Source of the DNA: Shigella phage CT01
Sequence record: OK018184
Reading direction: 5' to 3' (one strand)
DNA: 64,000 bases
Shown: in pieces, positions 8,329-30,576 of the stretch
How positions within the stretch are numbered: position 1 is the first letter of the stretch
How the letters are laid out: each line of letters opens with the position of its first letter
Program-made: the position numbers and the translations under genes
Notes under the pieces: model-generated
What the model saw: the letters and a program-made list of their open reading frames with translations, nothing else
Databases searched by the model: none
Told to the model about the DNA's origin: nothing

Positions 8329-9612
8329 ATGGCTAAAATCAACGAACTTCTGCGCGAATCAACCACAACGAATAGCAACTCAATCGGTCGCCCAAATCTC
8401 GTTGCTTTGACTCGCGCTACCACTAAATTAATATATTCTGACATTGTAGCAACGCAAAGAACTAATCAACCTGTTGCTGCTTTTTATGGTATCAAATACC
8501 TTAATCCAGATAACGAATTTACTTTTAAAACTGGTGCTACTTACGCTGGCGAAGCTGGATATGTAGACCGAGAACAAATCACAGAATTAACAGAAGAGTC
8601 TAAATTAACTCTCAATAAAGGCGATTTATTCAAATATAATAATATCGTTTATAAAGTATTAGAAGATACACCATTTGCTACCATTGAAGAAAGCGATTTA
8701 GAATTAGCTCTTCAGATTGCAATTGTTCTTTTAAAGGTTCGTCTATTTTCTGATGCAGCATCAACAAGCAAATTTGAAAGTTCTGATAGCGAAATTGCGG
8801 ATGCTAGATTCCAGATTAATAAATGGCAAACCGCAGTTAAATCTCGTAAACTTAAAACTGGCATCACAGTTGAATTAGCACAAGATTTAGAAGCAAATGG
8901 ATTCGATGCTCCTAATTTCTTGGAAGATTTGCTTGCAACTGAAATGGCGGATGAAATCAATAAAGATATTCTGCAGTCTTTGATTACAGTATCAAAACGA
9001 TATAAAGTTACAGGAATTACTGATACTGGATTCATTGATTTGAGTTATGCATCTGCACCTGAAGCTGGCCGTTCATTATACCGAATGGTATGTGAAATGG
9101 TTTCGCATATCCAAAAAGAATCAACTTATACTGCAACGTTCTGTGTTGCTTCAGCTCGTGCCGCTGCGATTCTTGCTGCATCAGGTTGGTTAAAACATAA
9201 ACCAGAAGATGATAAATATCTTTCACAAAATGCCTATGGGTTCTTAGCTAATGGTTTACCGCTTTATTGCGATACTAACAGCCCATTAGATTATGTAATC
9301 GTTGGTGTAGTAGAAAATATCGGTGAAAAAGAAATTGTTGGATCAATTTTCTATGCTCCGTATACAGAAGGTCTTGACTTAGATGACCCTGAACATGTAG
9401 GTGCATTTAAAGTTGTAGTTGATCCAGAAAGTTTGCAGCCATCTATCGGTTTATTAGTTAGATATGCTTTATCAGCAAATCCTTACACTGTAGCAAAAGA
9501 TGAAAAAGAAGCAAGAATAATTGATGGTGGAGACATGGATAAAATGGCGGGTCGTTCAGATTTGTCTGTTTTATTAGGTGTTAAGCTACCAAAAATTATC
9601 GTTGATGAATAA
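8329..9612 (+). CDS. 24: Capsid vertex protein gp24
   Basis: 427 aa, T4 gp24 length; paralogue-like relation to gp23; synteny. Confidence 0.92.
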   Translation: MAKINELLRESTTTNSNSIGRPNLVALTRATTKLIYSDIVATQRTNQPVAAFYGIKYLNPDNEFTFKTGATYAGEAGYVDREQITELTEESKLTLNKGDLFKYNNIVYKVLEDTPFATIEESDLELALQIAIVLLKVRLFSDAASTSKFESSDSEIADARFQINKWQTAVKSRKLKTGITVELAQDLEANGFDAPNFLEDLLATEMADEINKDILQSLITVSKRYKVTGITDTGFIDLSYASAPEAGRSLYRMVCEMVSHIQKESTYTATFCVASARAAAILAASGWLKHKPEDDKYLSQNAYGFLANGLPLYCDTNSPLDYVIVGVVENIGEKEIVGSIFYAPYTEGLDLDDPEHVGAFKVVVDPESLQPSIGLLVRYALSANPYTVAKDEKEARIIDGGDMDKMAGRSDLSVLLGVKLPKIIVDE

Positions 9613-9618
9613 AACAAA

Positions 9619-9634
9619 GGGACCGAAAGGTCCC
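9619..9634. terminator. Bidirectional hairpin terminator between gene 24 (+) and rnlB (-)
   Basis: GGGACC-GAAA-GGTCCC hairpin flanked by A-run and T-run. Confidence 0.65.
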
Positions 9635-9641
9635 TTTTTAT

Positions 9642-10646
9642 TTAACTTACCAATTCAATCCAAGCCGGACGAAGTACATCTTGTACCATTTTAACTAATT
9701 CCTTTTTAATCAAAGAAGGATTATCTGCTTGAGTTAGAGTAATACCTTCACGAGAAGTTTCTTCCAAAATATCTTGAACAGTTAGTCCCATCACCTTTCC
9801 AAAATCCTTTGGACCAATTTCGCCAATTTTAGAAATAACGTTATTTACTCGGTTCAGTGTAACATAGCAAGCTAAAATTCCCAGCAATTTATTATCAGCT
9901 TCTGACAGCTCAACTTTAGCTTTAATAGGCTTATCAGACTTTTTCTTTTCGCTAAATTTAGAGTTCTTGCATTTGATGGCTACGCGATTGCCATTAGGCA
10001 TCCAAGAAGGATAACAAGGTTTCAATACATATCCTTCAGCAGTAAATACTTCGCCTTTTGCTTCTGCATTCCAAACGCATTTATTTGCATCAACTAATCC
10101 AGCATGGTCTACTGTAAAATTATAATCCTGGACAACAGAATCTAAATCGTTTGGCAATTTAATAAGCTCTTCAAATTTACCGCGACCTAAAAGTGGAGCC
10201 ATTTTAAATTTAAATGTATTACAAAATGATTCCATCATATAATCATCGACATAAGTTACATCACCGCTTTCCGTAGTAACAATAATGTCAAATACATAAA
10301 AATCTTTATCACCATAATCGACATTCTTCTGAATGCCAGGTCCAGCGAATTCGCCGAAGACTTGATAAGATACAACTGCTGAAGTTTCCATAATATCTTG
10401 TACTGCTTTAATGGAATCAGCGTAATTCTTTAGAATAATTTCATACCCAAAGAAATCTTCAGCAGGAAGAATAGGACCAGTACGTTTAGCACAAGTTACT
10501 TTATCACGCTCAATAATCAATGAAAAGTTTGTACCATGAATCTTTTCACGAGCTACCCATTCGCCGCCAGTCAATCCTAAACTGTAAAGTTTTTCAATGA
10601 ATTTAGAATTGTAATGATTTTCAAGACTGCTATACTTTTTAAACAT
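9642..10646 (-). CDS. rnlB: RNA ligase 2 (RnlB, gp24.1)
   Basis: 334 aa, T4 Rnl2 length; nucleotidyltransferase motif-I-like sequence ([10 protein letters not shown]); synteny. Confidence 0.9.
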
Positions 10647-22181: not shown

Positions 22182-23146
22182 TGTATTCTTTAGAGGAATT
22201 TAATAATCAAGCAATAAACGCAGATTTCCAACGTAATAATATGTTTAGCTGCGTTTTTGCGACAACTCCATCAACTAAAAGCTCTTCGTTGATAAGTTCA
22301 ATTAGCAACTTTTCCTATAATAACTTGGGCCTAAATTCAGATTGGTTAGGATTGACTCAAGGCGATATTAATCAGGGAATTACTACGCTAATTACTGCTG
22401 GCACACAAAAACTGATAAGAAAATCAGGGGTTAGTAAATATCTTATTGGTGCCATGAGTCAACGTACAGTTCAAAGTTTATTAGGCTCATTTACAGTTGG
22501 TACATATTTAATTGACTTCTTTAACATGGCATATAACTCATCTGGATTGATGATATACTCCGTAAAAATGCCAGAGAATAGATTATCCTATGAAACTGAC
22601 TGGAACTATAATTCTCCTAATATTCGCATAACCGGAAGAGAATTAGACCCTTTGGTTATTTCATTTAGAATGGATTCAGAGTCGTGTAATTATCGTGCAA
22701 TGCAAGACTGGGTTAACGCTGTTCAAGACCCAGTAACTGGACTGCGTGCTTTGCCACAAGATGTCGAGGCAGACATTCAGGTTAATCTTCATGCTCGTAA
22801 TGGATTACCTCATACTGCTGTGATGTTCACTGGATGCATTCCAGTGTCAGTGAGCGCTCCTGAGTTATCATACGATGGAGATAACCAAATAACTACATTT
22901 GATGTTACTTTTGCGTATAGAGTCATGCAGGCTGGAGCGGTTGATAGACAAGCTGCGCTTGAGTGGCTTGAATCTGCTGCTATAAATGGCATTCAAAGCG
23001 TTCTCGGAAATAGCGGAGGTGTTACTGGACTATCTAATTCGCTTTCACGACTTAGTAGATTAGGAGGAACTGCAGGAAGCATTTCAAACATTAATACTAT
23101 GACAGGAATTGTCAATTCGCAAAGTAAAATATTAGGAGCAATATAA
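22181..23146 (+). CDS. 54: Baseplate tail-tube junction protein gp54
   Basis: 321 aa; synteny. Confidence 0.88.
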   Translation: MYSLEEFNNQAINADFQRNNMFSCVFATTPSTKSSSLISSISNFSYNNLGLNSDWLGLTQGDINQGITTLITAGTQKLIRKSGVSKYLIGAMSQRTVQSLLGSFTVGTYLIDFFNMAYNSSGLMIYSVKMPENRLSYETDWNYNSPNIRITGRELDPLVISFRMDSESCNYRAMQDWVNAVQDPVTGLRALPQDVEADIQVNLHARNGLPHTAVMFTGCIPVSVSAPELSYDGDNQITTFDVTFAYRVMQAGAVDRQAALEWLESAAINGIQSVLGNSGGVTGLSNSLSRLSRLGGTAGSISNINTMTGIVNSQSKILGAI

Positions 23147-23150
23147 CAAT

Positions 23151-23168
23151 GGGGACCGAAAGGTCCCC
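23151..23168. terminator. Bidirectional hairpin terminator between gene 54 (+) and alt cluster (-)
   Basis: GGGGACC-GAAA-GGTCCCC hairpin followed by T-run. Confidence 0.65.
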
Positions 23169-23174
23169 ATATTT

Positions 23175-23465
23175 TTATTTACGGAATGAAATAAAAGCAG
23201 CAACTGAAGCAACTAAACTGTCTTCAATATAAACTTCAATTTTTACCGGAGCTTCTGACTCAAATTTACCTGTTACTACACCTTGGAAAATGCTTTCAGT
23301 CTGTTCTGGCTTTGAAAAATTTTCAGAAGGAAAAATTCCGAACTTTTTATCTGTTCCAAAAATTTTGATAAATTCATCGTAAACTGCTTCATTAAAAGCG
23401 TTATCAGCAGGAATAACGCCTTCAACTACGAGTTCTTGACCTAAAAAGCGTAAAGAAGATTTCAT
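23175..23465 (-). CDS. Hypothetical protein downstream of alt genes (T4 alt.-3-like position)
   Basis: 96 aa ORF. Confidence 0.6.
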   Translation of the reverse strand: MKSSLRFLGQELVVEGVIPADNAFNEAVYDEFIKIFGTDKKFGIFPSENFSKPEQTESIFQGVVTGKFESEAPVKIEVYIEDSLVASVAAFISFRK

Positions 23466-23525
23466 TTTGTGTTCCTCATGTTATGTCAGTAAAATTATTA
23501 TAACACAACACGAGGGACTTGTAAA

Positions 23526-25583
23526 CTACATTTTGAACTTTTTAGACATTTCGTTGATGTTAACCAAAGAAGCCAAGATTTGAGAAACTTCGTTTTCCTC
23601 TTCTTTTGATTCTTCTACAAGGAATTGATTAAATCCAGCCATTGGACGAACTTCACCAGTTTCCATCAGGTGGTCGCCATCATATACCGATTCTTCTAAT
23701 TGTTCAGAAGGAGGAACGATTGTGCCTTCGATTAGATACTTGTTATAAGCAGTTTCTTTCATCATGTACGTACTCACTTTATTAATCTTCAGTAAAATTC
23801 CACGTGGTAAAATAACTTCAGCTTCTGATGGAAATCCTGATAAATGACCCGGAACGATAACTTTGATTCGCTCAGCTCCTTTAATTACCATACCCACGCT
23901 AGTTTCAGCATCTTCATTCGCATAAGCAGAGTGACTGCCCATATGCATTAAATCTTCAGCATCAACTGAACCTTCTCCTTCACCAGAAAATACTGCACCA
24001 GAATCATCTAGAGCCATATAGTTTTTACCATACTCACCGAAGATATTTGGTTTAAGCGATGTGGATACGAAGTTCTTGAAATAGAACATTTTATTTTCAA
24101 TATTATGACGTAAAGTTTTAAAGGTAACTTCTTGTCCACGGTAAAGTGTAGTTCCTGGAGGAAGAACTGATCCTTTGGCAAAGGCAGAATCCATTGTCTC
24201 GATGTGTTTAATAGCTCGTTCCATGTATTCTTCACGTGTAGAATCTGGTTTACCTAAAAGGAACGAGTTCATTTCAACATATGAATCTGCACAATAATCT
24301 TCAATTACATCAGACTCAGCCTGAGTTAATCCTTTTGGAGTTACTTCAGTACTTGCATATTCATACGCTTGAGAAGCAGACTCATTAATCAATTTATAAA
24401 TGCCATTCATGACAAATTGAATAATAGCTACCTTTTCATCTGGCGTGGCTTTAGAACCTTTAACTAAATCATTGACAATTTTCTTAATAACATCAAAACT
24501 ATTAGAAATATTAATGTCAGCAAGATCGCTTAAAATTTTATCGGTTTTATAATCAAAAAATTCTTTATTCTTTAAATATTCTTGAGAACCTTGATATGTT
24601 ATATCGCTCTGTAACTTGATAGATGGATCACGTAAACGTGCATGAGCCAATGCAATATGATTTCGGAAGCTTTCTAGTTCATAATCACTAGATTTAAAAC
24701 GAGAAGCACTTCTCATACCACCGATAGCTCCTTTGCTGAAGTTTGAACCAACCTGAATAACGCCGGAGTTCATTGGTCCTTCTGCTTTATATACCGGAAC
24801 TTTAGATTCAAACTCTTGATATTTCTTAGCAGCGAAGCTATCACCCTGAAGTGAAGCATCGACAGTAGAGTATTGAGCTTGTGCTGCTAATCGACGACTA
24901 ATTTTAGTTTTCTGAATAACAGCTTGATCCGTGCGCTTATCATTTTCTAAAGCAATAGAAGCAGCAACAGCAACAGCTTTAGGAACAGCATTGCCTGTTT
25001 TAACATCTACATAAACATCACCAACCTTTGATTCAACTTTTGTGAATAACTCAGTTGAAATAGGAGGTACACCTGGAATGTCTTCTAAATTGGCATTTTT
25101 ACGGTAAACCATAATATATGCATATTTCTTATCATAGTCCCAGATTTCTTTTAAAAGAACATATCGACCTGCTCCTTTAGTACGTACTAAACGGTCGGCA
25201 ATAACCTGCATTTGACGAGCTGCGCCATTTGTTTTACTTTTTAGTACGCGGAATAAGCATGCGTCAATTTTATACTGTTTCATTGTTTGAAGAGCAGTAT
25301 CAAAAACGGCATTAATGACACCAATTGGATTTCCACCCAAGTTTTTAAGTTTAACTAATGATAGTTTCTCATTAACACCTATCATTACGATATGCATCAT
25401 TTTATCGCCTGGCTTAACATTTTTATTTGTATCACCACCAGAGGTGTATGTACAAAATCTAAATCCAGGAAGCACACTTTCTTCGCCTGCTTGAATAGCA
25501 AAAATTTGAGGTATTTTATGCTTCGGATTTAAGTTAACAACCGGCGCTTCGGCGCCGTCAAATAATTCTGTAATAAGTTCCAT
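23526..25583 (-). CDS. Alt-like ADP-ribosyltransferase paralogue (second copy)
   Basis: 685 aa; N-terminus MELITELFD shared with adjacent alt; ART motifs R (TLYRGQ), STS (VSTSL), E-x-E (SEAEV) intact. Confidence 0.8.
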   Translation of the reverse strand: MELITELFDGAEAPVVNLNPKHKIPQIFAIQAGEESVLPGFRFCTYTSGGDTNKNVKPGDKMMHIVMIGVNEKLSLVKLKNLGGNPIGVINAVFDTALQTMKQYKIDACLFRVLKSKTNGAARQMQVIADRLVRTKGAGRYVLLKEIWDYDKKYAYIMVYRKNANLEDIPGVPPISTELFTKVESKVGDVYVDVKTGNAVPKAVAVAASIALENDKRTDQAVIQKTKISRRLAAQAQYSTVDASLQGDSFAAKKYQEFESKVPVYKAEGPMNSGVIQVGSNFSKGAIGGMRSASRFKSSDYELESFRNHIALAHARLRDPSIKLQSDITYQGSQEYLKNKEFFDYKTDKILSDLADINISNSFDVIKKIVNDLVKGSKATPDEKVAIIQFVMNGIYKLINESASQAYEYASTEVTPKGLTQAESDVIEDYCADSYVEMNSFLLGKPDSTREEYMERAIKHIETMDSAFAKGSVLPPGTTLYRGQEVTFKTLRHNIENKMFYFKNFVSTSLKPNIFGEYGKNYMALDDSGAVFSGEGEGSVDAEDLMHMGSHSAYANEDAETSVGMVIKGAERIKVIVPGHLSGFPSEAEVILPRGILLKINKVSTYMMKETAYNKYLIEGTIVPPSEQLEESVYDGDHLMETGEVRPMAGFNQFLVEESKEEENEVSQILASLVNINEMSKKFKM

Positions 25584-25586
25584 GAT

Positions 25587-27683
25587 TTATCCTTGAACGA
25601 ACTTGTAAGGCATGTTTGTAATATCTATGCAAGACGCAATAATTCCAAGAGATGATTCTACTTTCTGTTTAACGTTTGATGAAACAAATGATGCAAAGTC
25701 AACTCTGTCTTCTACTTCAATATCACCTGTCATTGCAACTACTTCGCCGGTTTCCATTAGACGGTCACCGTCATAAATGACTGATTCGGTGAGTTCTTCC
25801 GTAGTCATAACTTCAGCTTGAATGAGTTTTGTATTATTAGATGTTGTTCCGTCATTATTAGAAGCATCAGTTATTTTATTAACTTTGACCATCAATCCGC
25901 GCGGTAGAATAACTTCAGCTTCAGTTGCTATTCCGAGACTTCCTGGATATACAACATTAACTTTATGAGCTCCATCAATTGCCCATCCTATTTGAACTTT
26001 AACGTATTCAGGATTTTCTTTATACGCTCTTATTTCGTTTGGATTAATAGTTATTCCTTCTTCATTTTTATCAACTGTTAATTCATTACGAGCTTCTGGT
26101 TCTAAAAGACCGATACCAGCATGTGTAATTCCAAAACGTCCAAAAATGATAGGAGTTAAAGAAGTAGATACAAAATTTCTGAAATAGAACACTTTATTTT
26201 TAACTAGCGCTTCGTATATAGGAGCAGTCATACTTTGAGCACGATAAACTGTAATGCCTTCTGGTATACGGTCACCATTTTCAAAAGCTGAATCTAAATT
26301 ATTTATCGCAGATTCAATTTCTTTTTCACTCATTACATCATATCGTTCTGGATTGTAGCGGCCTAAAAGAAGATTATTGATGTCAGTATATCCTGATCCA
26401 CAATACTCTCTAATGCCGCGCTTTTGCGATGGAGTATATTTAGAACCATCACGTGCAATGGTAATATCAATCATTGGACCTGCACCAATTCCAGAAAAAC
26501 TATAAATCATTCGTTTGAGGAATTTAGTTTTTGCTGCGTTCCAGGAATTTTTAGTTATTTCTTCCCAGACTTCATCTGGCTGCCCTTTACGAGTTTTATT
26601 ATGTTTATCAAGCCAATTATCTTTATATTCTTCAAAGAATTGATTAACAGCTGCTGCGTATTTCTCTAAACATTTTATTGAAGTAGTTGGTTCATTTTTA
26701 ATCGCATTAAGAATTACATCTTTAATTTTTTCAGAAACTTCATTAACCTCACTTTTTGAAAAGAATTTATAGTCATAGTGAAGTTCATCTGCGGTTCCTT
26801 CGGCAATAATTTTTGCTGCCTTAGTTTTAGAAGCTAATGAATTAATTCCAAGCTTCATTTCTTCTGCTTCTGGAATTAAAGGAGCAGTAGCAGGTTTATT
26901 AAAATTAGCTGCGGTAGATTCATACTTCTGAAATAATTCACTTTCAAATCTAGAAGATTCTAATGATTGACTTTGTGCAATTGCTCTACGGGAAATTTTA
27001 ACTTTAACTATTACAGCTTGGTCAGAACGTTTATCATTTTCTTGCGCAATAGATGCTGCAATTGCTTCATTTTTAGTTACTTGAGCTCCAGTATCTTTAT
27101 TGATATAAACATCGCCGACCTTCGATTCAACTTTAGTAAAGAGCTCGGTACTAATTTCCGGAACTCCTGGAATGTCTTCTAGTGATACATTTTTGCGATG
27201 TATAAGAATATATGCATACTTTTTATCATAATCCCAGAGTTCCTTAAGAAGGACGTATCTGCCACCTGAACGACTACGGATAAGTCTATCAGCAATAAGT
27301 TGAATTTGTCGAGCTTGACCAGCAGTTTTAGACTTAAGAATACGAAGCATGCAGGCATCAATTTTATACTGACGCATCGTCTGCATTGCAACAGTAAAAA
27401 CTGAATTGATATAATTAATTGGGCTTGGACCGAGACCTTTCAATTTAGCAATTGAACCTTTAGCAGTTAATGTAAAAGGAACAATGTGCATCATTTTATC
27501 GCCCATCTTTAGATCACGGTTAGTATCACCTCCAGATGTATAGGTACATAAACGAAAGCCTGGTTGTTCAATTGCGTCATCAACATGAACTGAAAAAATT
27601 TGCGGTATTTTCTTCTTTGGATTTAAGTTTGTAATCGGAAGAGTAGTATCTTCGTCAAATAATTCTGTAATGAGTTCCATCAT
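25587..27683 (-). CDS. alt: Alt ADP-ribosyltransferase (packaged head protein that modifies host RNA polymerase)
   Basis: 698 aa; ART motifs R (TVYRAQ), STS (VSTSL), E-x-E (TEAEV); adjacent to gene 30 as in T4. Confidence 0.85.
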   Translation of the reverse strand: MMELITELFDEDTTLPITNLNPKKKIPQIFSVHVDDAIEQPGFRLCTYTSGGDTNRDLKMGDKMMHIVPFTLTAKGSIAKLKGLGPSPINYINSVFTVAMQTMRQYKIDACMLRILKSKTAGQARQIQLIADRLIRSRSGGRYVLLKELWDYDKKYAYILIHRKNVSLEDIPGVPEISTELFTKVESKVGDVYINKDTGAQVTKNEAIAASIAQENDKRSDQAVIVKVKISRRAIAQSQSLESSRFESELFQKYESTAANFNKPATAPLIPEAEEMKLGINSLASKTKAAKIIAEGTADELHYDYKFFSKSEVNEVSEKIKDVILNAIKNEPTTSIKCLEKYAAAVNQFFEEYKDNWLDKHNKTRKGQPDEVWEEITKNSWNAAKTKFLKRMIYSFSGIGAGPMIDITIARDGSKYTPSQKRGIREYCGSGYTDINNLLLGRYNPERYDVMSEKEIESAINNLDSAFENGDRIPEGITVYRAQSMTAPIYEALVKNKVFYFRNFVSTSLTPIIFGRFGITHAGIGLLEPEARNELTVDKNEEGITINPNEIRAYKENPEYVKVQIGWAIDGAHKVNVVYPGSLGIATEAEVILPRGLMVKVNKITDASNNDGTTSNNTKLIQAEVMTTEELTESVIYDGDRLMETGEVVAMTGDIEVEDRVDFASFVSSNVKQKVESSLGIIASCIDITNMPYKFVQG

Positions 27684-27732
27684 ATCCTCTCTAGTGTTTA
27701 TTCTATTTATAAAATTAAAGGCCCGAAGGCCT

Positions 27733-27921
27733 TTAATAATCTAATGGTAAGAGAGTACGATATATTTCAAACTTTGGCCCTTTTTCATAGGCATCAAATG
27801 TTTCTGTAAATTTATTATAAGCATATGCATCTACAAATTCGAGAATGACTTGTGATACAGAAGTAGAAACATCTCCACCTTCTTTTTGAGCTATAACAAT
27901 TGTTTCTAAGTAAGCTTTCAT
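27733..27921 (-). CDS. Hypothetical small protein between gene 30 and alt
   Basis: 62 aa ORF with start overlapping gene 30 stop. Confidence 0.5.
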   Translation of the reverse strand: MKAYLETIVIAQKEGGDVSTSVSQVILEFVDAYAYNKFTETFDAYEKGPKFEIYRTLLPLDY

Positions 27922-29378
27922 AGACCAGTTACCTCATGAAAATCACCAAATACATCCTCGAATGTATTAGCTTTAGTTTTATCTTCACGTAAACGAATCG
28001 CAATCGGAAGAAATAATTTAACGTAATCAGTGCGGCCATCAGATTTTAACCAACCGTTGCATTCGCACTCTAGAATTTTTCCAATATAATAATTTTGGTT
28101 TTCCATAATGCGAGTACGGTCAAGTTCATGTGATTTTACACCAGCTTTATCTTTTAAACCTGAACCAGCATTTACCTTAATTTTTCCACACTCTGATTCA
28201 AGAATAAATCCACCTGCTTTAGTAGGGTCTTTACGGTGAGGATAAATTCCTACAATTTTTAAATCAACATCAATTACTTCTTTAAATTTATAGAGATTTT
28301 TTGAACGAGCATTTTCCCACAATCCATCGGTATTTTTGAGAATAATACCTTCAAGACCTCGGTCAATATATTTTTTATAAATTACCTTAGCTTCATCTAG
28401 GTTATTTACTACCTGGTTTTCAATTAAAATTACTTTATCATATCCTGATGTCATTTGTTCTAGTTTAGAAAAACGTACATCATATTTTAAACGAAACGCC
28501 GGAAGACCGTATATTTCTACCAACGGGACATAATCCCAGACCTGAAACTTCATACATTTGGCTTCTTTTTCTGAAATAGTTCCCTTTAAAGATTTATTGG
28601 CGATTCCATTAGAAGCAGTACGAGATTCAGCTACTTCAGCAAACTCTTTAACTTTACTATTTTCAGGAGAGTCAAAAAGAAAATCTAGGCCTTCTGGCTC
28701 CTTTTCAACTTGCTCATGGTATACCAATTCGCCATCAATTAACACACCTTCTGGATGAATCTGGCGGGCTTCAGCAGTCATTTTGATTAGATCTTCCTTA
28801 AGAAGATCTAATCCTAGATATTCATTACCAGCTCGCGATAAAAGACGAACATCATCTAATTCATCGCCTCGGACTTCAGCAAAACACCGAGCTCCATCTG
28901 CTTTTAACTGCGCAAAAGCTGGAAACTTGATATTCTTACTAATGCCTTTTTCATCATAAGAACTTGCCAGCATTTGAGGTTGTTCAGGAATTAAACCTGG
29001 CCAAACTTTGTTTGCAATAGATACTGAAGCACCACATTCAAGGTCTCGCATCATAACTCGACGCAAAACTTCAACATCATCCTTTTTACCATCGGTGATA
29101 TATCCAGTTAATTCCTCAATTGCTGCATTGCCAGTTAATTTCCGAGTAGCTAACGTGAATTCAATGAAGTCAAGCATATCGGTAATAGTCAGCATTCCAA
29201 AACTCTGGGTAGCAATACCAGGTTTAGGCCATTTCTTGATATAATACTGTAACCCACGAGAATAAGTCAGACGATATACTCGTTTAAGCAATTCATTATC
29301 TTTATTCTTTTCAAGAATTGCTTGCTTCTGCTTAGTTGAACCAATAGATGCTATTTCATTTAGAATTTCAAGAATCAT
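27918..29378 (-). CDS. 30: ATP-dependent DNA ligase gp30
   Basis: 486 aa; near-identical to recalled T4 DNA ligase sequence (MILKILNEIASIGSTKQKQ...); contains the KADGAR adenylation motif. Confidence 0.95.
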   Translation of the reverse strand: MILEILNEIASIGSTKQKQAILEKNKDNELLKRVYRLTYSRGLQYYIKKWPKPGIATQSFGMLTITDMLDFIEFTLATRKLTGNAAIEELTGYITDGKKDDVEVLRRVMMRDLECGASVSIANKVWPGLIPEQPQMLASSYDEKGISKNIKFPAFAQLKADGARCFAEVRGDELDDVRLLSRAGNEYLGLDLLKEDLIKMTAEARQIHPEGVLIDGELVYHEQVEKEPEGLDFLFDSPENSKVKEFAEVAESRTASNGIANKSLKGTISEKEAKCMKFQVWDYVPLVEIYGLPAFRLKYDVRFSKLEQMTSGYDKVILIENQVVNNLDEAKVIYKKYIDRGLEGIILKNTDGLWENARSKNLYKFKEVIDVDLKIVGIYPHRKDPTKAGGFILESECGKIKVNAGSGLKDKAGVKSHELDRTRIMENQNYYIGKILECECNGWLKSDGRTDYVKLFLPIAIRLREDKTKANTFEDVFGDFHEVTGL

Positions 29379-29644
29379 TGCTCATCCTTCAAGGTTTGGT
29401 TTACAGCTCTATTATAAATCAATTCATCATTAAGCTCAGGCAAAGACTTATGATATGTAGTTCTAACTTTATTTCCTTGCATCCAGTGCTTGACGTAAAT
29501 GAAACCTTGCTCTACACATTTTTTAAAAATTCGTTCATCCTTTTGAGCACGGAACTCTGGATTACATCTAAAAAATTGATTTACGTGACCGTAATCACGT
29601 GTAGTATTACCTTCATTTTCATAAATAGTATGAACAACAAACAT
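29375..29644 (-). CDS. Hypothetical protein (T4 30.1 position)
   Basis: 89 aa ORF, overlapping starts/stops. Confidence 0.6.
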   Translation of the reverse strand: MFVVHTIYENEGNTTRDYGHVNQFFRCNPEFRAQKDERIFKKCVEQGFIYVKHWMQGNKVRTTYHKSLPELNDELIYNRAVNQTLKDEQ

Positions 29645-30576
29645 TAGAATGCTCCTTGAAAAATATTATCACCACTAGTAGGTCTATTATACAAATACTC
29701 TATGCCACCAGGTTTAATATAGTTCCATGTCTGAAACGGATGTGTCTGATATGGATGATATAGATGATTATTAGGTCTATTATACAAATACTCTATGCCA
29801 CCAGGTTTAATATAGTTCCATGTCTGAAACGGATGTGTCTGATATGGATGATATAGATGATTATAAGGATTTAATCCAGGCGTTCTCCAGGTAGTGTTCC
29901 AAGGAAAAGAATCGTTTTTAACCATCTTCTCAATTAAATCTTTTATAGCTTTTTCACTATCAAAACTTTCTTTATTTTCCTTCGGCGAAAAAAGCTTATT
30001 TTCTACATCATTCCATGTATAAACTCGCTGCGCAGTTTTTGGAATATTGTCACGCTCTCCTCGAGCCATCCAATAAACAGGAACATTTAATATTTCACTC
30101 GCATGATCGCAGTGATGAGCGAGATCGTCAATATAACAAATTACGTTATATTTCTCTTTTGCCTTTTTGAACAGCTCTTCTTTTGAAGAATCATGACCAC
30201 ACATCATTACTTCCGAGAAAGCACCAGGAAAAAGAGCATTCAAATTAAATTGACGATTCAACAGAGCGTCAATAGAATCACCCAATGCTGTAACAGCTAC
30301 AAAATTATAATCTTCTTTTAATTTGTTAATTACACACAGGGCATCTTTATACGGAGACAAGTAACGAATAAAATCTGAACGATTGTATTTTTCAATTAAC
30401 TTGACGCCAAGTTCTTCGTCACAATTAAAGAGTTTACCCGGAGAAATAAATTTCTCATCTTGGATCATTTTTAAAATATGTTCTAATGGAAGATTATATT
30501 TCTGAGCAAAATAAGGAAGGCCTGATTGCCAGCTTAAACATACTCCATCAATATCAGTTAAAATAGTTGGCTTCAT
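29644..30576 (-). CDS. HAD-superfamily hydrolase-like protein (T4 30.2 position) with internal 31-aa tandem duplication
   Basis: 310 aa; N-terminal ILTDIDGV resembles HAD motif I; 93-bp perfect tandem repeat near C-terminus. Confidence 0.65.
   Translation of the reverse strand: MKPTILTDIDGVCLSWQSGLPYFAQKYNLPLEHILKMIQDEKFISPGKLFNCDEELGVKLIEKYNRSDFIRYLSPYKDALCVINKLKEDYNFVAVTALGDSIDALLNRQFNLNALFPGAFSEVMMCGHDSSKEELFKKAKEKYNVICYIDDLAHHCDHASEILNVPVYWMARGERDNIPKTAQRVYTWNDVENKLFSPKENKESFDSEKAIKDLIEKMVKNDSFPWNTTWRTPGLNPYNHLYHPYQTHPFQTWNYIKPGGIEYLYNRPNNHLYHPYQTHPFQTWNYIKPGGIEYLYNRPTSGDNIFQGAF
29679..29864. repeat. 93-bp perfect tandem duplication (2 copies) inside 30.2 ORF
   Basis: 29679-29771 is identical to 29772-29864; in frame, duplicates 31 codons. 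Confidence 0.9.

Follow-up and report, generated by a model that had tools for sequence, protein, structure and literature searches.

Bacteriophage T4 carries about 40 copies of the ADP-ribosyltransferase (ART) Alt in its capsid and ejects them into the host; ADP-ribosylation of the Escherichia coli RNA polymerase α subunit and other host proteins is known only for T4 Alt. In T4, alt (682 residues, NP_049811) is followed by two small genes, alt.-1 (61 residues, NP_049810) and alt.-2 (67 residues, NP_049809), which, according to the T4 record itself, go back to an old duplication of the initial part of alt. Mass spectrometry has located the cuts made in T4 Alt by the prohead protease gp21 after ITE-6 and LTE-619, so that 6 N-terminal and 63 C-terminal residues are removed (PMC5694885; summarized in PMC9026906). 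Paralogous duplications of alt have been listed previously, among them the T4 alt.-1/alt.-2 pair and, in phage 44RR, a full-length duplicate (Nolan et al. 2006, PMC1524935), and phage 6phi13 encodes a pair of Alt-like paralogs, 43% identical, for which functional divergence has been suggested (2026 paper, PMC13600099).

Here we describe the corresponding locus of Shigella phage CT01 (record OK018184), of which a stretch of 64,000 nucleotides, referred to below as the window, was analyzed. The window is a segment of a Tequatrovirus (T4-like) genome, and the locus consists of two adjacent minus-strand genes, designated Alt-A (the Alt ortholog) and Alt-B (a paralog, named Alt2 in one related phage). 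It very probably represents a late-transcribed two-gene cassette encoding two diverged and intact members of the Alt family that are packaged in the capsid and act as arginine-specific mono-ADP-ribosyltransferases.

The two Alt-family genes, their domains and their signals

A first-pass annotation of the window had reported two adjacent minus-strand open reading frames (ORFs) of 685 and 698 residues, and both were located exactly where it had placed them (Table 1). It had also given both proteins the N terminus MELITELFD, which is correct for Alt-B and for Alt-A read from the second of two consecutive ATG codons (ATGATG, window 27678–27683) but not for the 698-residue ORF, which begins MMELITE. 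The Shine-Dalgarno spacing (GAGGAT-ATG-ATG) and the annotation in Shigella phage SF2-1 favor the second ATG (27680) and therefore point to a protein of 697 residues beginning MELITELFD; the ITE-6 processing numbering of T4 Alt agrees with this start. Annotated starts vary among related phages, the first ATG being used in Bas37 (698 residues) and in the T4-type allele of HP3 (MMELITE, 685 residues) and the second (697 residues) elsewhere.

The proposal that the two proteins are paralogs is borne out by pairwise alignment, in which they share 41% identity and 56% positives end to end over 717 columns (BLASTP, E = 6e-162), far beyond chance. Both also match PHROG 802, "Alt-like RNA polymerase ADP-ribosyltransferase," from end to end (1–685, E = 1.6e-255, and 1–696, E = 3.4e-272). 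As compared with T4 Alt, the full-length identity is 70% for Alt-A and 43% for Alt-B. The identity between Alt-A and Alt-B is very uneven along their length and divides Alt-B into four regions, for which Alt-B numbering is used (Table 1). The N-terminal α/β domain is presumed to be the module for incorporation into the prohead core; the Pfam family given for it in precomputed annotations of homologs, PF26846, was not reported by a local Pfam search of the two proteins. The helical middle domain is a candidate target-recognition module.

The R, S-T-S and E-x-E motifs of ADP-ribosyltransferases are kept in both copies, as the first-pass annotation had maintained, and the second copy retains the catalytic residues on alignment. 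Both proteins match Pfam PF03496 (ADPrib_exo_Tox) with E values of 2.6e-20 and 1.8e-37 and scores of 73 and 129 bits, the cut-off being 23.4. In an alignment of 32 Alt-family sequences, whose members are 43–98% identical to Alt-B, Arg482, Ser507, Ser509, Glu587 and Glu589 are invariant and Thr508 is at least 90% conserved. The residues just ahead of the E-x-E motif differ, being GFPSEAE in Alt-B and GIATEAE in Alt-A. The AlphaFold2 model of Alt-B has a mean predicted local distance difference test score (pLDDT) of 75.9, and its best Foldseek matches are Vis, C3bot, Certhrax, CDTa, VIP2 and iota toxin (E = 3e-7 to 3e-4, probability 1.00). These toxin relatives surfaced only in the fold search of the model; a sequence search of the PDB with Alt-B gave no match at E ≤ 0.01. 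In the R-S-E toxin clade, an E-x-E rather than a Q-x-E motif accompanies arginine specificity, and the same specificity would be expected of Alt-A and Alt-B from their E-x-E motifs.

Both proteins begin MELITE/LFD, with the ITE-6 motif for gp21, and their first nine residues are the same as those of T4 Alt. The C-terminal motif that aligns with LTE-619 of T4 Alt is LTE-632 in Alt-A and LEE-631 in Alt-B. In the 32-sequence alignment, Glu6 and Glu631 are invariant, and Ser632 is invariant or nearly so. The tails beyond the predicted C-terminal site have isoelectric points of 4.2–4.5, and in the Alt-B model the pLDDT falls below 50 exactly at residues 1–11 and 629–685, the predicted propeptides, and is confident elsewhere. 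Cleavage at both sites would leave mature proteins of 70.2 kDa (Alt-A) and 69.1 kDa (Alt-B). The retention of the ITE-6 and C-terminal L-x-E motifs is good sequence evidence, short of proof, for the incorporation of Alt-B into the prohead core and for processing of the kind seen in Alt. Together with the intact R-S-E motifs and the ART fold, these gp21 motifs make the earlier description of both proteins as plausibly active and capsid-packaged well founded.

The T4-type late promoter sequence TATAAATA has 20 matches in the window as compared with 8.5 expected; the match ahead of Alt-A is the sole one within 23000–28000, and no other late promoter lies on the minus strand from gene 30 to the gene 54 terminator. 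The terminator-like hairpin that it follows, which was read directly from the sequence and is not listed by a consensus terminator scan, closes the upstream early transcription unit. The stop codon of Alt-A is separated from the start of Alt-B by 3 nt, the AAGGA Shine-Dalgarno sequence of Alt-B lies inside the end of Alt-A, and a search of the coding strand between them revealed no TATAAATA and no strong σ70-like or terminator-like site, so that late co-transcription of Alt-A and Alt-B is most likely. The terminator between alt.-3 and gene 54 is the probable 3′ end of a late alt-alt2-alt.-3 transcript.

Alt-B, the T4 remnant and the distribution of the pair

Sequence comparison identifies Alt-B as the intact ortholog of the alt.-1/alt.-2 locus of T4. 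In protein alignments alt.-1 corresponds to Alt-B residues 1–55 and alt.-2 to residues 62–117. The alt.-1 type family, PHROG 23015, matches Alt-B at E = 1.9e-39 and Alt-A at 1.2e-21; for the alt.-2 type family, PHROG 15247, the values are 3.2e-38 and 2.1e-19. The blastn blocks are collinear, T4 8601–9113 corresponding to window 23031–23545 and T4 9105–10276 to window 25236–26444, and T4 lacks window ~23546–25235 but is otherwise collinear. The ends of the missing part are marked by a 9-bp direct repeat, CTAAAAAGT, present twice in Alt-B (Table 1). T4 has a single copy, the intervening 1699 bp is gone, and no ART domain is left; this deletion shifts the frame and yields the odd C terminus of alt.-2, SKCSLQVPRVVL. 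T4 has in addition lost 1 nt near codon 55 (AAAAATG to AAAACG), and the resulting −1 frameshift gives the stop codon of alt.-1 and the restart of alt.-2. Because the 1-nt deletion and the 1699-bp deletion between the CTAAAAAGT repeats turn Alt-B into alt.-1/alt.-2, the comparison indicates that the T4 state is derived and that the window has the intact ancestral gene. The tentative statement in the first-pass annotation that T4 has one alt plus small alt.-1 and alt.-2 at the same position agrees with the T4 annotation. Alt-B is the ordinary intact version of that region and not something new.

The 4.9 kb around the Alt pair has 99.8% identity to SF2-1 and 97–98% to dozens of phages of Escherichia, Shigella, Yersinia and Salmonella. 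The 1.67-kb segment absent from T4 is found nearly full length in ~401 phage records at at least 90% identity, and a T4-type remnant in one piece is found in ~91. The same two ORFs recur in hundreds of independent records, and an assembly or annotation artifact is therefore ruled out. T2 and T6 both have a 685-residue ORF and a 697-residue Alt with 97.7–99.1% identity to the window proteins. Alt-B is 98.7% identical to Alt2 of the BASEL phage Bas37/KarlGJung (bas37_0032, QXV82013), 97.8% to the T2 protein (BBF63359) and 97.7% to the T6 protein (BBF63615), and Alt of Bas37 (Bas37_0033) is 99.3% identical to Alt-A. The protein cluster that contains Alt-B at 90% identity has 772 members. In seven phages Alt-B is constantly 685 codons long with no stop codon, and the same length is found in T2, T6 and Bas37. 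The ratio of nonsynonymous to synonymous substitution rates (dN/dS) is 0.020–0.065, with dS of 0.12–0.26, in all 21 pairs of the seven phages; by this measure Alt-B is a functional gene under strong purifying selection, not a decaying duplicate.

The tandem arrangement is thus already known as the common, annotated and named state of T-even phages, with T4 as the outlier. In many genomes RefSeq gives both genes the name "Alt-like RNA polymerase ADP-ribosyltransferase," the Sf23 record notes the second gene as "distinct from ... T4 Alt," and the Bas37 record (MZ501089) names the two genes Alt and Alt2. A search for Alt2 together with ADP-ribosyltransferase and phage found no paper, the name being confined to a supplementary table and the GenBank record of Bas37, and the paralogs are unmentioned in general papers and in a Klebsiella phage proteomics paper. 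The first-pass annotation had read the pair correctly, but it is an ordinary, already annotated feature of which CT01 provides one more isolate.

Alt-A itself is a mosaic relative to T4 Alt, with 97–100% identity in residues 1–250 and in the C-terminal tail and 12–76% in residues 250–650; the divergent center, which covers the middle and ART regions, lies at window 25800–26930. The 697-residue form is present in the window and in T2, T6, Bas37, UFV-AREG1, Sf23, PhiZZ30 and GEP001, and the 682-residue type (682–685 residues) in T4, PYps5T and HP3. The pattern looks as if the effector half had been exchanged as a cassette while the packaging module stayed constant, and the Alt family as a whole looks modular, with exchangeable target-recognition and catalytic modules. 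The known targets of T4 Alt are not simply transferable to either window protein.

A set of JS10- and KM16-type Alt proteins (P0011–P0015, 682–707 residues) was also compared. The effector half of the JS10 type (P0011, P0012) has 43–47% identity to Alt-B in the middle domain, 56% in the ART domain and 61–70% in the tail, as compared with 15–16%, 35–36% and 41–44% to Alt-A. The KM16 type (P0013, P0014) is nearer to Alt-B in the ART domain only (48–50%, against 36–37% for Alt-A). Since these effector halves resemble Alt-B more than Alt-A, the Alt-B effector lineage, as judged from protein identity, reaches beyond the tandem pair of Tequatrovirus.

The T4 gene order is kept locally, with genes 29, 48 and 54 on the plus strand followed on the minus strand by alt.-3, Alt-B, Alt-A, alt.1, 30 (DNA ligase), 30.1 and 30.2. 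The alt.1 homolog (window 27733..27921, minus strand, 62 residues) gives a full-length match to Pfam PF24647, "Phage blade protein" (E = 1.9e-29). The gene 30.2 homolog (29644..30576, minus strand) encodes 310 residues as compared with 278 in T4 and contains a 93-bp tandem duplication at 29679–29868 (2.0 copies, 98% match), by which ~31 residues (NHLYHPYQTHPFQTWNYIKPGGIEYLYNRP) are repeated near the C terminus.

Table 1. Features of the Alt locus, in window coordinates
Feature	Position	Strand	Description
Alt-A (Alt ortholog)	25587..27680; ORF extends to upstream ATG at 27683	-	697 residues (698 from 27683)
Alt-B (Alt2, paralog)	23526..25583	-	685 residues; predicted mature form residues 7-631, 69.1 kDa
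Alt-A catalytic residues	R480 26241-26243; S505-T-S507 26160-26168; E587-A-E589 25914-25922	-	VYRAQ around R480
Alt-B catalytic residues	R482 24138-24140; S507-T508-S509 24057-24065; E587-A-E589 23817-23825	-	LYRGQ; NFVSTSL; SEAEVILPRG
Alt-A gp21 motifs	ITE-6 27663-27665; LTE-632 25785-25787	-	Aligned with T4 Alt sites
Alt-B N-terminal α/β domain (residues 12-235)	24879..25550	-	67% identity to Alt-A; homologs carry precomputed PF26846
Alt-B helical middle domain (residues 240-415)	24339..24866	-	18% identity to Alt-A, 11% to T4 Alt; all helices, pLDDT ~80-92
Alt-B ART domain (residues 416-628)	23700..24338	-	34% identity to Alt-A; PF03496; Foldseek; invariant columns
Alt-B acidic C-terminal propeptide (residues 632-685)	23529..23690	-	After L-E-E631 gp21 motif (predicted); C-terminal tail 44% identity to Alt-A
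9-bp direct repeat CTAAAAAGT, upstream copy	25236..25244	-	Alt-B codon 114; left end of T4 deletion
9-bp direct repeat CTAAAAAGT, downstream copy	23537..23545	-	Alt-B codon 680; right end of T4 deletion
T4-type late promoter TATAAATA	27704..27711	-	~20 nt upstream of Alt-A start; directly after hairpin, then ribosome-binding site
Terminator-like hairpin AAAGGCC-TTCG-GGCCTTT then AATTTT	27717..27734	-	Direct reading; overlaps alt.1 stop codon
Strong sigma-70/T4-early-type promoter TTTACA-17-TATAAT, extended -10 TG	23497..23525	-	11/12 matches; directly after Alt-B stop; serves alt.-3
Bidirectional intrinsic terminator between alt.-3 and gene 54	23149..23170	.	Terminator scan

Proposed function and alternatives

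In the proposed mechanism, transcription would start from the single late promoter and read through Alt-A and Alt-B, and both proteins would enter the prohead core via their conserved N-terminal module. There gp21 would cut after ITE-6, which takes off 6 N-terminal residues, and would release the acidic tail by cutting behind LTE-632 (Alt-A) or LEE-631 (Alt-B). The mature enzymes of ~70 kDa would be ejected with the DNA and would use NAD+ to ADP-ribosylate host-protein arginines in the first seconds of infection. Because the middle domains (18%) and the active-site surroundings (34%) are almost unrelated, Alt-A and Alt-B most likely act on different sets of host proteins, and the set of one or both may include anti-phage defense proteins. 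The suggestion of the first-pass annotation that the second paralog could have a different target fits these sequence differences and closely resembles the one published for phage 6phi13.

Indirect functional data come from the HIDEN-SEQ preprint (10.1101/2025.11.20.689424) and its transposon tables. According to the preprint, T4 Alt helps the phage to evade Mokosh type I defense, and T4 Alt, but not Bas37_0033, the allele corresponding to Alt-A, restores growth against it. In the Bas37 data, Alt2 (bas37_0032) was hit at 116 of 164 TA sites (71%) and classed as "Intermediate," and Alt at 164 of 179 and classed as "Non-essential." Mean insertion counts in the K-12 control were 44.5 for Alt2 and 203.6 for Alt (~4.5-fold), with 170–198 for small flanking genes. 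As the Alt2 counts in this table are below those of Alt and the small neighbors, disruption of Alt2 appears to cost some, mild fitness even on the laboratory host K-12. A term search of the main text of the preprint gave no mention of Alt2 or bas37_0032. A polar effect on alt.-3 is an unlikely cause of the low counts because alt.-3 has its own promoter and, in the same table, tolerates insertions. The alt.-3 homolog of the window (23175..23465, minus strand) belongs to DUF5498. In T4, C-terminal extension mutations of alt.-3 enable escape from the CmdTAC defense system (PMC11618068), and in the Bas37 transposon data alt.-3 disruption is depleted on Escherichia coli CFT073 (log2 fold change −2.70, adjusted p = 0.02; 10.1101/2025.11.20.689424).

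A more specific form of the proposal is that Alt2 is a second capsid-injected ADP-ribosyltransferase with targets of its own, plausibly a defense or translation component, that its loss is costly on K-12, and that the Alt locus serves as a modular effector platform with two Alt-A alleles and Alt-B; we put this forward tentatively, as a reading with somewhat less than an even chance. It would account for the lack of characterization of Alt2 by the fact that the laboratory reference, T4, has deleted it.

Several points weigh against the cassette of two packaged effectors. The searchable literature yielded no proteomics of virions, no enzyme assay and no list of targets for Alt-B or Alt2, and for this protein we infer packaging, activity and target divergence. 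The low Alt2 counts in the supplementary table could be caused by harmful truncated products and not by loss of function. In the two of six host comparisons covered (K-12 against CFT073 and, going by the order of the sheets, against CFE299), no host-specific effect of Alt2 was evident (log2 fold changes of 0.11 and 0.19, not significant). T4 and ~90 relatives do without Alt-B, which is therefore dispensable in some hosts.

Of the other explanations, the one that survives best, although we consider it unlikely, is that Alt-B is a redundant back-up whose targets are in essence those of Alt-A (RNA polymerase α and others) and which adds only dose or robustness. The two proteins do share architecture, catalytic motifs, the arginine-type E-x-E signature and operon, and T4 copes with a single Alt. 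Redundancy is, however, difficult to reconcile with the low identity of the middle and ART domains and the different residues ahead of E-x-E, and the maintenance under strong purifying selection of two copies with only 41% identity argues for separate functions. In the preprint data, moreover, disruption of Alt2 lowers insertion counts though Alt is intact, and the Alt alleles of T4 and Bas37, although a closer pair, are not interchangeable either.

It is less probable still that Alt-B is made late but remains unpackaged and works inside the cell that produces it, against late-acting defenses for instance. Packaging has been demonstrated for T4 Alt only, and the literature searched contains no report of Alt2 in virions; MELITELFD with ITE-6, the aligned C-terminal L-x-E and the conserved N-terminal domain, however, would have no obvious reason to persist in a cytoplasmic enzyme. 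A role as a pseudoenzyme, a catalytically inactive head protein that is structural or associated with the scaffold, would fit the N-terminal domain being the part best conserved with Alt-A, but it is made very improbable by the five invariant catalytic residues, a Pfam ART match well over threshold and the likeness of the modeled domain to active toxins. Finally, that Alt-B is a decaying duplicate heading for the loss seen in T4 and ~91 records, where only a frameshifted and deleted remnant is left, its intactness here being incidental, is scarcely credible and is rejected on the dN/dS values (at dS up to 0.26), in keeping with the constant 685 codons, the ~401 records with the full segment and the 772-member cluster.

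Comparison with known systems

Knowledge of injected phage ADP-ribosyltransferases comes almost entirely from T4, which is the degenerate case at the Alt-B locus. Most T-even phages, T2 and T6 included, would deliver two different enzymes, many of them with an Alt allele that is not that of T4. The link of T4 Alt to Mokosh and the non-interchangeable Alt variants, as described in the preprint, make the target range of Alt2 a concrete question.

Alt2 of Bas37 and the unnamed 685-residue ORFs of T2 and T6 are the same gene as Alt-B in position and length, with no substantive difference. T4 alt.-1/alt.-2 occupies the same position, between alt and alt.-3, with flanks collinear with those of Alt-B. 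Alt-A and Alt-B have in common with T4 Alt the MELITELFD/ITE-6 start, the N-terminal, helical middle and R-S-E ART domains and the acidic propeptide after L-x-E. They also share its late promoter and lie, like it, with gene 30/alt.1 on one side and alt.-3/gene 54 on the other. Alt-B differs from T4 Alt in sequence: its N-terminal domain is 67% identical, its ART domain 36% and its middle domain 11%.

The ModA and ModB proteins of T4 are likewise phage R-S-E ADP-ribosyltransferases that act on host transcription and translation proteins. They are small (~200 residues), early-expressed proteins that are not known to be packaged, and they differ from the Alt proteins in being without the N-terminal and middle domains. 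The C3-like, VIP2, iota, CDTa, Vis and Certhrax toxins have the fold of Alt-B's C-terminal domain (template modeling score ~0.6, normalized to the toxin domain), along with its R, STS and ExE motifs, but are only 14–20% identical in sequence. As compared with these R-S-E toxins, Alt-type proteins have extra N-terminal and helical domains and propeptides removed by a protease, and whereas the toxins are secreted or enter via a binary pore, enzymes of the Alt type are delivered by ejection from the phage capsid.

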